Assembly: GCA_965262115.1 (NCBI GenBank)
Contig: OZ253496.1
Span: forward strand, 480,001-544,000
DNA: 64,000 nt
Direction of reading: 5' to 3'
Origin: Nitrospinales bacterium
GTDB lineage: Bacteria; Nitrospinota; Nitrospinia; Nitrospinales; VA-1
The notes under the pieces were generated by a model. That model did no database searches. It had not been told where the DNA came from and was given only the letters and a program-made list of their open reading frames with translations. Numbering within the stretch: the stretch's first letter is position 1; each line of letters opens with the position of its first letter. Below, piece by piece: positions 9,943 to 39,278 of the stretch. The position numbers and the translations under genes are program-made.

Positions 9943-10020
9943 CGGGACGTAGCGCAGCCTGGTTAGCGCACTTGACTGGGGGTCAAGGGGTCGGAGGTTC
10001 AAATCCTCTCGTCCCGACCA
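9943..10020 (+). tRNA. tRNA-Pro(GGG)
   Basis: Cloverleaf: acceptor CGGGACG/CGTCCCG, anticodon arm CTTGA-CTGGGGG-TCAAG, GGTTCAAATCC, encoded CCA. Confidence 0.97.
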
Positions 10021-15369: not shown

Positions 15370-18300
15370 TCACACCCACTCTTTACAGAGCACTTCTGCC
15401 TGTTCCAGAATTAACTCCGTTGCCTTTTTCTCCATATCAGGAGGATAGCCGTACTGGCGCAAAATGCGCTTTACCATGATTCTGATTTTGGCTCGTGCAT
15501 TTTCACGAAGCGTCCAGTCAATGCTCACACTTTTCCTGACTTTCTTAAGCAATTCCTGAGAAAGAAAACGCAGTTTTTCATCTCCCATAACATCTCTTGC
15601 GCTCCCGTTATCGGCAAGCGCATAGTAAAAAGCCACTTCTTCATCATTAAGGCCCAATGATTCACCACGCTTTTGCGCTTCCCTCAAATCCTTTGCAATA
15701 CGAATCATTTCCTGAATGACTTCAGCGGCTTCAATAGTACGATTTTGGTATTTATTAATGTCTTGTTCTAACATCTCCGCAAATGACCGCGCTTGGACGA
15801 CGTTTTTTCGTGATCGAGTCTTGATTTCGTCATTGAGAAGTTTTTTTAGTAATTCCAAAGCGAGATTGCGCTGAGGCAAATTTTTGACCTCTTCAAGGAA
15901 TTCATCGGACAAGATTGAAATATCAAGCCTTCCCATGCCAGCGGCTTCAAATATATCAACGACCTCTGTCGATGCCACTGCCCGTGAAACAAGTTGTTTG
16001 ATAGCCGAATCCATCTCATCAAAAGTTTTTCCCTTTTCATCACCCGTGGTCTTAACTAATGCTGATCGCACTTCCTGAAAAAAACCTATGTCATCACGAA
16101 GTGCTAAAGCCTTTTCGTGAGGGACTGAAAGCGCAAACGCCTTGCCAAGTGCTGTGACCGCTGGCAGATAACGTTTTTTCCCATCGTCAAGACTCAGCAC
16201 AAACTCCATCGCCCTCATGATGCCTGAGATGCGGTCAGACGATTTGCCTTTAACAATATTCATGTAATCAAATCCGTAAAACATATCCTTGACGATTCCA
16301 TATTTTTCATAAAGGACAGTAACCGCTTGCTCCTGATCAATTGTTGCTGACCCTTTGCCGCCACTTTCCGTATAATTAGCCAGTGCCTTTCTAAGAGAAT
16401 CCGCAAGCCCAAGATAATCGACCACTAACCCGCCCGGTTTGTCACGAAATACTCGATTTACTCTGGCAATAGCCTGCATGAGATTATGACCATCCATGGG
16501 CTTGTCTGCATACATAGTGTGCATGCTCGGACAATCAAACCCGGTTAGCCACATATCCCTGACAATGACCAACTTTAATTCATCTTTAGGGTTTTTGAAC
16601 CGCTTCGCCAAATCTTCGCGCCCCGTTTTGCTTCGAATATGAAGTTGCCAGTCTAAATGGTCGGATGCAGAACCTGACATGACAATTTTCATAATGCCTT
16701 TTGTATCATCATCACTATGCCATTCCGGCTTGATCTTTCTGATAGCCTCGTGCATATCCACACAAACCCGACGGCTCATACAGACAATCAACGCTTTACC
16801 ATCCATGACCTCAAGACGTTTTTCGAAATGCGCCACTAAATCTTCTGCAACCAGATTAACGCGCCTCTTCGCCCCCACCATCGCTTCCAGCGCGGCCCAT
16901 TTGGTACGAAGCTTTTGTTTGCCTGATTCTTCTGCATCTTCAGTGATGTTTTCAAACTCAGGATCAAGCTTTGGTTTTTCATCTTCTTTCAGTTCAATTC
17001 TTGCTAACCGGCTTTCGTAATAGATCGGAACCGTTGCGCCATCTTCCACCGCTCGAAGGATGTCGTATTTGTCTATATAGTCCCCAAACACAGCAGGCGT
17101 ACTGCGGTCATCGTTCTCTATAGGTGTCCCCGTGAAACCTATGAACGAAGCATGGGGAAGCGCATCGTGCAAATGCCTTGCAAACCCATCAATAAAATCA
17201 TATTGGCTTCGATGCGCCTCATCCGCTATGACGACAATATTCTTTCTCTCAGAAAGAAGCGGGTGTGCGTCGCCCTTCTGGTCAGGCATGAATTTCTGAA
17301 TGGTGGTAAAGATGACTCCGCCAGATGCCACCTGCAAAAGCTCGCGCAAATGCAAGCGGCTTCCTGCCTGAGTTGGAGACTGCCTCAGCAGATCCTTACA
17401 GTTGGCAAACGTGCCAAACAACTGGTCATCAAGGTCGTTTCTGTCCGTCATCACTACTAATGTAGGATTGCCCATATCAGGGTGGCGAATGACTTTCCCT
17501 GCATAAAAGGTCATCGACAAACTTTTCCCGCTCCCCTGCGTATGCCAGATAACTCCAATCCTGCGGCCTCCAAAATGGTCCGTGCCGGGGCCATAGTGCG
17601 TTTTTCCCTCTTCTACGGTTAACGATTCGTTTGATTCAGGGAACCTGCCTATCAACTTGCTTTGGTCCGCAGAAATCCCGCAAGCAGAAAAAGTGCAGGA
17701 CAAGGCTTTATTGACCGCCCAATACTGATGATAGGCTGCGCCCTTCTTCTCAATAGTGGCTCCGTCATCCTCAAAAACAATGAAGTTAAGGAGATAACCT
17801 AGAAATCGCCGACGCTCAAACAGTCCGCGAACGGTCACTTCCAGTTCGGGCATACTTTTTGGGGCAAGCACTGTGCCCTCTACCGTCCGCCACGGCATGA
17901 ACCGGTCCCAGTCACTGGTGAGTGTTCCCGTTCTTGCCTGAATACCATCCGAAATCACCAACACTTCGTTGGCTACAAAAAGAGAAGGGATATCTTTCTT
18001 ATAGGTTTGCAGTTGATGGAACGCGCTTTTGACGGTGGCGTTCTCATCCGCCGGGTTCTTGAGATCCATCACAGCCAAAGGCATGCCGTTAATAAACACG
18101 ACCACATCCGCCCGTCTGTTCTTATTGTCTTCAATAACAGTGAACTGATTCAAAGCCATCCAGTCGTTGTTGTCGATATTTTCGAGGTCTACCAGCCAAA
18201 CCTTGACATGCCGGGTTCCGCCATATTCGTCCTTGGCAGGCACCTCGACATCCACGCCATCGGTCAACAACCGGTGAAAAGAGCGGTTGTTGACAATGAG

Positions 18301-18543
18301 GTCCGGAGATTCCGTGCCCGTTATTTTTTTGATGGCTTCCTCAATACCGATGCCGGGAACATCGGGGTTAATACAGGCCAGGCTCTTCCGCAACCGGTCA
18401 AGCAAAAACACTTGCCGATACTCATCGCGTTCCGCATCCGGCGTATCAGGGGCAAGATCAGGACCATGCAGGATGCCATAGCCCAACTCCCCCAGCCATG
18501 CCAGAGTCGCCTCCTCCACAGTGTTTTCGGTGATCTTAGTCAC
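15370..18543 (-). CDS. hsdR: Type I restriction endonuclease subunit R
   Basis: [14 protein letters not shown] nuclease motif (D in place of the usual E), [37 protein letters not shown]. Confidence 0.95.
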
Positions 18544-20198
18544 ACGACCGCCTCGACAAATTTCTCTGCTTCGGGGATGCGGAGTTCCCCTGACAGGAGT
18601 TTAGGAAGGAGGGTGTCTCGTTCAAGGGCTAAAGCTTTAATATCAATGGAACATACTTCTATCTTCTGATCAAAAACTCCAGCCCACTTTTCGAAATTCT
18701 CCACAAGTGCTTTGGAGCACTTAATCCACTTAAGAGCTTTGAAATCCCTTTGGCTGATGCTGCCAAAAACTGTTCCTTCTCCTTCAAACCTGTTGAAATG
18801 TTCTTCTAGTTCCTTCATTGCATAATAGGTATAAGAACGACTTCCAGATTTATGACGCACAGCCCCAACACCCCTACCAATACAACAGTTTTCTAGAGCC
18901 ATATTTACGTCACCCACAGGTGCACGCACGCTTACTAATGTGTCGTCTTTTGAAGCGAACCTCTTTGGCTTTGTGCAATAAATACGGTTCGATGGGTACC
19001 TAAAACCAAAGTCCACTCGGCCTTGAAAGAAAGGCTCCCCTTTGTTATCTTCGTTGTAGGAGTAGCCAGGAGGAGACTGGCCCATTGTCACGTCAAACTC
19101 TTCTCCAGTCGTACTCACTTCCCACCCCTTAGGTATCCAGCCTAATTCTTTGGTGTGTTCGAATTCATTGGGAAAAAGATTTTGAATTTCTTTTGGCAGG
19201 GGTTTGCGGGCATGACCAAGGTTTTTCCGCATGGCGGCTCGTTCTGCTAGTTCTTTGGGTATGGATTTGCCAGCGGCCAAAGCGTTGTCAATAACCGGAT
19301 CAAAATCCACAAACCAGCTTTTGAACAATGCCTGTGCCATGGCTTCCAACGTCTCATTCATCTTGCGGTTCAATTCAATTTTATCGTCCAGCGAACCTAA
19401 GATATGGGCAATTGCGCGTTGTTCGGGGAGAGTTGGCAATGGAACAGGAAAGCGTCCAAGGATTTTTGCGTTTGCTCCCGCTTGTGCCGAACCAGTTTTG
19501 GAGGAATTTACAAAGCCCCACCATTTTGAAGACCTCATGTTGTACCAAGTGAAAAATGGGTCAGCTAAATCAGAATTAATTTTGAAACGAATTAAGTATG
19601 AAGCAAAAACCGTTTCCTCTCTGCCTGTGAAGATATAATTTTCACCGGTACTGTTTCCCGTCCTTGCTACAACAATGTCTCCAAAACTCAACCGATACTT
19701 TTCTAAATCTTTTTCATCAATTGGGCAAAAAGGCACAGTCTTCCAGTTAACAACACCATTTTGGATATCAGTTATCCGCAAGAAATGTGGTCCAACTTTT
19801 TCCGAACTTGCGCTTTCAGTATAGCCATAGGAAACATCCGTGGCCAATTCGGATAATGAAAGCTCTCTCCACCCCTCCAGGACAACCTCACCCATGTCCT
19901 CCTGCAACACCACATGCTCGGCCTTAATATTTTTGCGGAACTTTTCCGGCACTTCATCCCAGACAAACAAGTCCATGCGGAATGGCAGGTTGCTTTCCTC
20001 GAAAGCTTCTTTCAGGTTGGAGACCTGGGGTTTTTGTTCGGGCGTGGTGAAAACCGCCATGTCGAGATCGGACTGCGGACGGGATGTCCATTTAACACGG
20101 GAACCGTAAACCCAAACGATGGTATTAGGAAGATAGCTTCTCAGCAAATCGAGAATAACCTTGCGCTGAGCAGGGGTTATATCTATGCTCACTCCCAT
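18540..20198 (-). CDS. hsdS: Type I specificity subunit with N-terminal MNT nucleotidyltransferase domain
   Basis: aa 1-100 carry GS-X10-DLD ([16 protein letters not shown]); then TRD1, [28 protein letters not shown]2, [13 protein letters not shown]. Confidence 0.92.
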
Positions 20199-20605
20199 GT
20201 TTCACCACTCAGGGTTTGGTAAAGGCCGATGGCATCGTCGATAAAGTCACCCATCACTTGCAACACCGCCTGCGCATTTTCTCCACTGTAGTCGTGGGCG
20301 GTGCCGATGCGCAAATCGGCGTAAAGCATCCATTGCTCCAAGGTCGAAGCAAACAGGTTATTCTCAAACGCCAGCCGAAACAAGGGTTTGGGGCTGTTGG
20401 GAACCTCGGGAAGACCCAACTCATCCTGCAAATAATGTTTCAAGACCTTCCATATACAGTCATAACAAGTCTCAAAACGCTGGACGACAGACTCTTTAAC
20501 GGCTTCCTGGATCAGGTCTGGCTGGGCTGGGTCCAGCGTTCTATAGTTCTCGTGCTGGAGTTCCAGATGTTTGAGTGACTTCTGAAATTTATCGTATTCG
20601 ATCAT
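20189..20605 (-). CDS. HEPN toxin-like protein (nucleotidyltransferase substrate-binding family)
   Basis: VQRFETCYD..WK, SPKPLFR and R-X4-H-X-Y motif (RIGTAHDY). Confidence 0.88.
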   Translation of the reverse strand: MIEYDKFQKSLKHLELQHENYRTLDPAQPDLIQEAVKESVVQRFETCYDCIWKVLKHYLQDELGLPEVPNSPKPLFRLAFENNLFASTLEQWMLYADLRIGTAHDYSGENAQAVLQVMGDFIDDAIGLYQTLSGETWE

Positions 20606-20608
20606 GGT

Positions 20609-22222
<1,614 letters not shown>

Positions 22223-22481
22223 GGTTCGTTCCAGTCCTAATTATAAATATTGCTGTCCTGCTTCAAGCCTGCTCAAGTGCCTTTCTTCTCACATTGGATT
22301 GTCTATGCCGAATTATGGCAACCGTCATAGTACAGGAAGCCGCTTCCTAATAAAAACCCTAATATAAGCATGAAGCAATACGCCCATCAGAGGCATAGTA
22401 TGCTATTTATCATTTTCTTTTCAATGCCTTAAAAGGCTGGCTTGATTAAATTAAAAACTACTCCAACGCATCCTTAAATGT

Positions 22482-22871
22482 CTAGAGATTTCTTCGTAAA
22501 GCGTTAATGAGTCTTCTGGTTGATCTTCCTGGAGTTTTGCATTCCCAAAATGTCCACCCATTAACTGGATAGTTAGTGATTTGCATTGCCGCACTTGATG
22601 GGGAATCAAACTTTTTTCCGTCAAGGTCTAGTGCACCGTTATCAACCTTGGCGTAATAATTCTCTCCTTTGTGATGTGCATAAAATTCAGTGCCGTGTGG
22701 AAATGAGACTTTTTTCGTAATCCAGGGTTTTCCGTTCGCTAGATCATTGTTGATTTTTATTTTTGATAGGTTCAATAAGTCGCGAAGGACATCGTTGTAA
22801 GTAACCTCCTCCGTTAAACGCCTATTGGTTAACTCCTTAAAAACCTCAAAATCGATTTCAATGGCTTGCAT
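22482..22871 (-). CDS. RAMA/DUF4357-like DNA-binding protein with RHH-like N-terminus
   Basis: IEIDFEVFKEL..TYNDVLRDLL N-terminus; FDSPSSAA...NGWTFW C-terminal motif; RBS GGAG before ATG 22871. Confidence 0.7.
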   Translation of the reverse strand: MQAIEIDFEVFKELTNRRLTEEVTYNDVLRDLLNLSKIKINNDLANGKPWITKKVSFPHGTEFYAHHKGENYYAKVDNGALDLDGKKFDSPSSAAMQITNYPVNGWTFWECKTPGRSTRRLINALRRNL

Positions 22872-22890
22872 ATTACTCTCCCAACCTAAA

Positions 22891-22928
22891 ATAGTTAACA
22901 TAGTTTATATTTTAACTATATCAACTAT
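22891..22928. promoter_or_regulatory. Operator-like double inverted repeat
   Basis: ATAGTT-aac-ATAGTT-n8-AACTAT-atc-AACTAT just upstream of the RAMA-like gene. Confidence 0.55.
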
Positions 22929-23208: not shown

Positions 23209-23337
23209 GAGACCTTTGCGTAAGTCTATAAAGCAGAAAAGCGAGATGCTTCGACAAGCTCAGCATGACAATAAAAGGCTATTTTGTCATTCTGAAGAGC
23301 TATTGCAACGAAGAATCTTGGGTTATGCAAAGGTCTC
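23209..23337. mobile_element. 129-bp MITE with 15-bp TIRs and 9-bp target-site duplication
   Basis: GAGACCTTTGCGTAA ... TTATGCAAAGGTCTC flanked by TGTGTAAGT (23200-23208 and 23338-23346). Confidence 0.92.
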
Positions 23338-23736
23338 TGTGTAAGTGGGATGACGCATGCGGCCATGAAGGCCATCGGTTTTCAGGGTCTGTTTTTCGCG
23401 AAAGTCAATGTTGAACTTGAACCGCAAAACCCCCAACTGAACGATAGCCCAGATACGAAATACCGAGCCGACCAGAAACAGGGTTACGACCATGACCCCC
23501 TCCAAAAAAGCTACGGGAGCTTCAGTAGCACGAGAAACAAATGACATTCCCACCAGAGCCATGCAAATCGGTAACACATGTCCAAAGAGCTGTTGGAAAT
23601 ATGCCTTATTGAAGGTACAGTCTTCCGGCCTCTCGGTCAGGACGAAAATGATCATCTCAATAATGCCAAAAATCAAATTGATGAAGGAAACGACCATGAA
23701 TCGTCCAATATTGGCGTCGATCATCCCTAGAGGAAT

Positions 23737-39201: not shown

Positions 39202-39278
<77 letters not shown>

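Follow-up and report, generated by a model that had tools for sequence, protein, structure and literature searches.

An MNT nucleotidyltransferase domain fused to HsdS beside a HEPN gene in type I restriction-modification operons: a possible lock between a predicted toxin-antitoxin cassette and hsdS

Introduction

What does a HEPN gene do inside a type I restriction-modification (R-M) operon when the domain predicted to silence its product is built into the specificity subunit of that same R-M system? The question is raised by a locus in a Nitrospinales bacterium (assembly GCA_965262115.1, contig OZ253496.1, positions 480,001 to 544,000 of the forward strand). This stretch of 64,000 nucleotides is called the window here, and positions are counted from its first letter. 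A sequence-only reading had proposed that the antitoxin is part of the R-M complex and that loss of the complex could free a HEPN RNase. We followed this up with profile searches, structure prediction, junction-spanning contigs, surveys of other genomes and metagenomes, and phylogenetic analysis.

Results

The operon consists of the following features.

20738..22222, minus strand: hsdM, type I methyltransferase subunit, 494 aa, ending at a premature TAA (PF02384, 333.7 bits, and PF12161)
20609..20740, minus strand: premature TAA (20740-20738) with the C-terminal hsdM tail beyond it, 43 codons left untranslated as far as the usual stop
20189..20605, minus strand: HEPN gene for a 138-aa predicted RNase toxin, HI0074/NTase_sub_bind family (PF08780, 76.1 bits, cut-off 31.8)
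20288..20311, minus strand: RX4HXY motif (R99, H104, and Y106 as predicted AMP acceptor), from sequence and alignment
18540..20198, minus strand: MNT::HsdS fusion gene, 552 aa in one frame (Pfam, spanning contigs, AlphaFold2 model)
19896..20198, minus strand: MNT domain (HI0073-like minimal nucleotidyltransferase), residues 1-101 (PF18765, match to 1no5)
20061..20105, minus strand: GSX10DXD motif (G32, S33, D44, D46), from alignment
19893..19903, minus strand: in-frame ATG (Met102) with AGGAGG 2 nt upstream, a weak candidate internal start for plain HsdS
18543..19895, minus strand: HsdS part with TRD1, coiled coil, TRD2, coiled coil (PF01420 twice, PADLOC Specificity_I, model)
15370..18543, minus strand: hsdR, intact, 1057 aa (TIGR00348, 595.9 bits, cut-off 284.55; HSDR_N; helicase motifs)

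The gene order hsdM - HEPN - MNT::hsdS - hsdR was thus read correctly from the sequence, with all open reading frames on the minus strand. The junctions had been called tight or overlapping, and this holds for HEPN/MNT (10 nt overlap) and hsdS/hsdR (4 nt overlap), but hsdM and the HEPN gene lie close only when hsdM is read through the in-frame TAA at 20740-20738. A frameshift or assembly artefact at the fusion is ruled out by junction-spanning contigs from two studies, which run unbroken, with no stop or frameshift between MNT and TRD1. Contigs of runs X1-X3, from two samples of one study that is possibly the source of the window's DNA, cover 18400-22300, and one contig of run X4, from a second study, covers 19399-20238 including the MNT-HsdS junction; neither set differs from the window at any position. 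Scans for promoters and terminators returned chance numbers only. Upstream of hsdM lies a RAMA/DUF4357-like gene (22482-22901) with a weak PADLOC PDC-S14 match and a 63% identical copy elsewhere in the genome. An apparently truncated ICMT-family methyltransferase reading frame, covering only half of its Pfam model, is found at 23323-23724. A tRNA-Pro (9943-10020) and a tRNA-Arg (39202-39278) are also present in the window, and neither adjoins the R-M operon.

An HMM search found Polbeta/MNT, Methylase_S and NTase_sub_bind domains, all three at this locus. The fusion protein matches PF18765 at residues 21-99 (39.2 bits, cut-off 26.9), PF01909 (21.8 bits, cut-off 21) and PF01420 in two stretches, so that Pfam and the contigs agree on an MNT domain fused in a single frame to an HsdS with two TRDs. 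The GSX10DXD motif is exact, as had been read (G32-S33-X10-D44-L-D46, with Asp76 as the third Asp), is invariant in 16/16 aligned sequences and is kept in all 381 of 381 MNT-bearing fusion proteins. By profile the MNT domain matches HI0073 (1no5) with an E-value of 3.9e-25. An AlphaFold2 model built from a 143-row alignment (mean pLDDT 89.5, pTM 0.77; a single-sequence model was unusable, pLDDT 37) places the MNT domain at a TM score of 0.90 to 1no5 and matches the HsdS structures 3okg, 1yf2 and 7vru in addition to HI0073. It has helices at 257-297 and 496-536 and an MNT-HsdS linker of about 10 residues; the two TRDs and two coiled coils of a type I HsdS are present by Pfam and model. An N-terminal fusion is reported to be tolerated by HsdS (PMC6158711). 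In the fold search PDB 8vsr ('Co-crystal structure of Prx with Esub1') also matched strongly; it may be a precedent for the binding of a protein to an HsdS-like domain. Two MNT domains occur in 19/120 fusions, and several also carry PF04480 (DUF559) or GIY-YIG.

The HEPN protein contains the RX4HXY motif seen at first reading (RIGTAHDY; R99-IGTA-H104-D-Y106) and matches HI0074 (1jog) with an E-value of 2e-09. Q42, E45 and R99 are invariant in 18/18 aligned sequences, and by alignment Q42 and E45 seem equivalent to Q44/E47, the reported metal site of a related HEPN RNase that likewise has a short MNT (PMC11586414). The residue after the motif Arg is Thr, Ile or Val in 72/86 motifs and Ile in the window, unlike the solved HI0074 and HepT, which have Asn. 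PADLOC has no model matching the HEPN. Judged by codon changes, both parts are under purifying selection, with median dN/dS of 0.08 (HEPN) and 0.12 (MNT) over 55 non-independent pairs.

The fusion recurs in other genomes and is tied to an upstream RX4HXY HEPN. Of the 1,112 candidates obtained with residues 1-135 as seed, 1,018 were matches (303-966 aa), and PF18765 and PF01420 are present in all 120 proteins among the matches listed. A distant seed, the fusion on plasmid pZMOB01 of Zymomonas mobilis ATCC 10988, where the whole layout hsdM-HI0074-MNT::hsdS-hsdR is found, gave 147 matches among 275 candidates; the two sets may overlap, and the surveys started from fused sequences. In a library clustered at 50% identity, 149 of the best 150 matches contain MNT, all with GSX10DXD. 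The metagenome survey covered the best 80 of 536 confirmed stretches and yielded 81 MNT matches: 53 fused to HsdS, 25 free, one frameshifted before hsdS and two cut by the contig end. Where MNT adjoins hsdS in the window's lineage it is fused in 53/54 metagenome cases, and the exception resembles a frameshift. Across 400 genomes of the class of genome G041, 10/64 MNT matches are HsdS fusions (one in the centre genome), each with a HEPN upstream (10/10) whose motif is kept in nine; two further long frames in this sample (G240, G404) were rejected as fusions. Within the window's phylum, 5/120 genomes have matches, three of them fused, and HEPN-seeded loci span many phyla by record titles. No fusion to a non-hsd gene occurs among the 81 metagenome and 64 class-sample MNT matches, and phage records and viral contigs gave no match with the queries used.

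Of 57 non-redundant fused loci, 55 have a HEPN gene immediately upstream, 54 of them with an unaltered RX4HXY, and GSX10DXD is intact in 57/57; of the two loci where no HEPN was seen, one has no upstream sequence and the other (L073) has no such gene. Seeding with HEPN instead finds MNT next in 16/17 loci, and the orphan HEPN (L015) has lost H104 and Y106. The fusion, by contrast, is kept without HEPN (L073) or with a degenerate HEPN (L022, L150). A tandem duplication of hsdM-HEPN-hsdS in genome G106 (L148, 913-7978) has lost MNT and the HEPN motif together in its second copy. From these sequences, the asymmetric losses look like the pattern expected of a toxin and its antitoxin. Departures are an intact HEPN motif beside an MNT without the GS motif (L089) and altered spacing in L122 and L135. 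At L146:2765-5607 and L030:583-3391 a free HEPN-MNT pair is followed in tandem by another whose MNT is fused to HsdS.

The premature stop in hsdM had gone unmentioned at first reading. It shortens the product by 43 residues, replaces a GAA of the relative L008, and is followed by tail sequence that is still conserved; the TAA is covered by X1-X3 of one study, X4 stopping short of it. In alignment the lost tail falls on the C-terminal region of PacII M1 (7vru). Surveyed hsdM genes extend 41-70 residues past the matched part and relatives have the tail intact, the single shorter entry being the 5' piece of an IS-split gene in L019. Removal of about 43 C-terminal HsdM residues of EcoKI is reported to abolish binding to M1S1 (PMC2647291), and tail deletion in PacII is reported to disrupt assembly (PMC9613975). 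The stop removes this assembly tail, and a search of the window's genome turned up no other full-length hsdM, so the R-M enzyme of this strain is probably inactive.

This bears on the proposal that loss of the R-M complex could free the RNase, which found no support. The HEPN motif and the fusion are intact beside a broken cognate hsdM in three loci, namely the window, L016 (a 3' hsdM fragment only) and L158 (an in-frame TAA), although the L016 and L158 genomes contain other HsdM-like genes. These are 3 of about 52 fused loci with hsdM seen (42, plus 8 from the class sample, plus L158 and the window; fused loci alone were counted, and many hsdM genes are only partly visible). In addition, the HsdS part is shortened beside an intact toxin motif in 4/49 complete fused frames, and close MNT relatives are also found free, next to their own HEPN. 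Since hsdM is broken in three loci and HsdS shortened in 4/49, antitoxin function seems to be independent of the assembled R-M complex.

An internal start for plain HsdS had also been suggested. The ATG at 19895 (Met102) is present and a Shine-Dalgarno signal exists at the level of the family, but in the window AGGAGG is poorly spaced (2 nt), with a pairing energy of -3.4 kcal/mol at normal spacing and -10.3 at a spacing that is too short. A conserved internal Met was rejected for the window's lineage (13/120 linkers vs about 29 expected), and linker Met is enriched in a second set (48/120 vs about 30). In 26/63 linkers a Shine-Dalgarno-like site is combined with a start codon in frame, vs 11.0-15.3 expected under three resampling schemes, including MNT-only codon usage and preserved GC3; whole-gene codon usage is confounded by the lower GC3 of the TRDs, and the TTG signal persists with the corrected schemes. 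The signal survives when each cluster is reduced to a single locus (median p about 0.001, in tests picked after data inspection) and is driven by TTG, which makes up 19/41 linker Leu codons vs 111/652 in MNT. The linker Shine-Dalgarno and TTG may be a working weak start or the relic of an old hsdS start.

A tree of HEPN plus MNT (106 rows) replaced a poorly resolved MNT-only tree. On it fused and free forms interleave, with 16 changes of state, of which at least five are forced by strong branches; a single clade of fused forms is rejected (p-AU 2.6e-15, AU test without the long-branch row L146_alone). Read without a fixed root, the tree allows several gains and losses of the fusion. On an Acetobacter plasmid (L019) hsdS follows in frame four codons after the MNT stop, a single in-frame stop away from fusion, and L159 and L160 are likewise unfused hsdM-HEPN-MNT-hsdS. 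Fusion is not required for the layout, since such unfused loci occur. MNT is also fused to HsdR, more rarely than to HsdS: 11 proteins among 286 candidates, all with the motif. One operon from the same genus as the window (L158, genome G013) has both, an MNT::HsdS and, at L158:2039-5577, a second HEPN followed by an MNT::HsdR of 1045 aa.

Free TRD exchange is usual for working HsdS alleles. In the fusion family TRD1 is less than 40% identical in 244/310 pairs whose MNT is at least 90% identical (comparison over the 232/382 proteins with locatable domains). This exchange of TRD1 behind a constant MNT suggests that the family contains working specificity subunits.

Discussion

Class I of the type VII HepT/MntA systems pairs PF08780 or PF01934 with PF01909 (Yao et al. 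2020, PMC7641770), and the window resembles it in having an RX4HXY HEPN adjoining a GSX10DXD MNT, with the Pfam pair above cut-offs. It differs in that an R-M subunit of 552 aa carries the antitoxin as its N-terminal domain and the toxin gene comes first, whereas the usual form is two small separate genes, mostly with MNT first (PMC3710099). The curated NCBIfam cut-offs are also missed (NF047752, MntA, 36.6 vs 60; TIGR01987, HI0074, 48 vs 55.8). The closest solved relatives of both domains, HI0073/HI0074 of Haemophilus influenzae (1no5, 1jog), were solved as separate small proteins without an R-M subunit fusion. As in PrrC/EcoprrI, the HEPN gene of the window sits inside a type I R-M operon. 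PrrC is described as an ABC-ATPase-HEPN held by the R-M complex (PMC3710099, PMC3874165); the window HEPN is a 138-aa stand-alone protein with no ABC-type ATPase fused to it, so the architecture does differ from PrrC as first proposed. Unlike PrrC, it has its own predicted enzymatic antitoxin on HsdS and persists with a broken hsdM. By analogy the cassette likely works like a type VII pair while lacking two membership features, and is not PrrC. In FhepTA (PMC13000451) an MNT also works inside a fusion, but its partner is the toxin, and neither restriction nor HsdS comes up in the main text. Payne et al. 2024 and Anantharaman et al. 2013 treat the same genomic slot and the same backup-nuclease idea; the main texts of both (10.1101/2024.01.29.577857, PMC3710099) have no HsdS and that of Payne et al. 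no MNT. No MNT-HsdS fusion was found in the literature searched, in which subscription papers are sparsely covered and which includes the main texts of PMC7641770, PMC3710099, PMC2701414, PMC12839542, PMC13000451 and PMC3874165. The architecture is real and widespread, has apparently gone undescribed, and joins two known kinds of system.

The best reading, by analogy, is a toxin-antitoxin cassette resembling type VII, with the catalytic antitoxin carried by HsdS. We give a probability of a little under one half (about 0.47) to the reading that a HEPN-MNT cassette sits between hsdM and hsdS, that MNT silences HEPN, and that the fusion is a mutual lock. HEPN would be a toxic RNase, and MNT, by analogy with HepT/MntA (PMC7641770), likely AMPylates its Tyr106. 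The MNT domain would be catalytic and largely autonomous, which would suit a low-copy subunit, and the HsdS part would still serve as specificity subunit. Translation from the hsdS start would be the sole source of antitoxin, so that newly made HEPN would be left unmodified if this start were deleted, frameshifted or swapped for an MNT-less allele. The fusion would likely lock the cassette and the 5' end of hsdS together and make both hard to lose. The hsdM stop has probably inactivated the R-M enzyme of this strain, yet the toxin-antitoxin pair is still there, as would be expected of an addictive cassette. HepT/MntA of Shewanella is reported to stabilise a plasmid, and attempts to delete only its antitoxin failed (PMC4621449). 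We count for the mutual lock the HEPN/MNT pairing, low dN/dS, asymmetric losses, repeated fusion, hsd-only partners, TRD1 swapping under a constant MNT and persistence with broken hsdM in three loci; against it count the non-Asn residue after R99, the motif-less MNT of L089, the spacing in L122 and L135 and the existence of unfused loci. The lock cannot protect most of hsdS, because mutations 3' of MNT are tolerated, and classical post-segregational killing may be weak, as toxin already modified covalently would stay silent if the entire locus were lost.

Next in rank, and rather unlikely, is that the MNT stop has been lost repeatedly simply because an in-frame hsdS tolerates the extension, the cassette being one of many guests of type I operons and the two systems independent. 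The Acetobacter locus one stop short of fusion and the interleaving of fused and free forms fit this, as do the many linkers that keep a Shine-Dalgarno and TTG as though plain HsdS were still made; the toxin-antitoxin pair also tracks the R-M chassis loosely (rank correlation over 14 loci 0.38 for MNT-HsdR vs 0.84 for HsdM-HsdR). The near-universal fusion of hsdS-adjacent MNTs in the window's lineage and the absence of a non-hsd partner argue the other way, and even a neutral origin would still couple antitoxin supply to hsdS translation. Ranked below it, and unlikely, is a guard or abortive-infection role, in which a phage anti-restriction protein bound to HsdS, or proteolysis of the complex, disables the tethered MNT, and HEPN made later stays active and halts the infected cell. 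The PrrC precedent (PMC3874165), the general proposal that HEPN-R-M links act in this way (PMC3710099), the short linker and the recurrence of the fusion on two R-M subunits, HsdS and HsdR, speak for it. Type I operons are moreover described as hotspots of embedded defence genes (Payne et al., 10.1101/2024.01.29.577857), and 21/26 fused loci have space for extra genes between hsdS and hsdR. Toxin and fusion are nevertheless kept in the three loci with a broken cognate hsdM, and the tail lost from the window's hsdM is an assembly region in EcoKI and PacII, with no second full-length copy found. Related MNTs are found unfused, and AMPylation is covalent, so a blocked HsdS DNA groove would not obviously free existing toxin. 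Doubtful to a slightly greater degree is the broader claim that guarded type I R-M systems form a widespread class that has evolved repeatedly, in which phage or plasmid anti-restriction proteins that bind or destabilise HsdS (or sometimes HsdR) also turn off the attached antitoxin and let HEPN abort infection, and an internal start supplies plain HsdS.

Least probable, at long odds, is that HEPN and MNT are no toxin-antitoxin pair but the two subunits of a nucleotidyltransferase, which would regulate restriction by modifying the R-M enzyme or some other target. PF08780 does carry the name 'substrate-binding subunit', the motif has no Asn after its Arg, and the literature as far as covered holds no direct toxicity test of this HEPN subfamily. 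Set against this, the motif R, H and Y and Q42/E45 are conserved, the latter apparently matching an RNase metal site (PMC11586414), and orphan HEPNs are degenerate. The Zymomonas ZM4 gene hsdSp (deleted in PMC8432527) was considered as a natural knockout and set aside, as no ZM4 plasmid is among the 29 plasmid matches to the MNT query. The mutual lock ranks ahead of the neutral passenger, the guard and the non-toxic modifying enzyme, in that order.

Databases call these proteins merely 'restriction endonuclease subunit S', and roughly a thousand protein clusters are involved. The finding bears on what type VII toxin-antitoxin systems do and on whether the HEPN genes of R-M operons act as guards in the manner of PrrC or as selfish stabilisers. 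Both layouts are at hand, fused in cultured Zymomonas mobilis ATCC 10988 and unfused on the Acetobacter plasmid. Deleting such an hsdS to raise transformation would also take out the predicted antitoxin.
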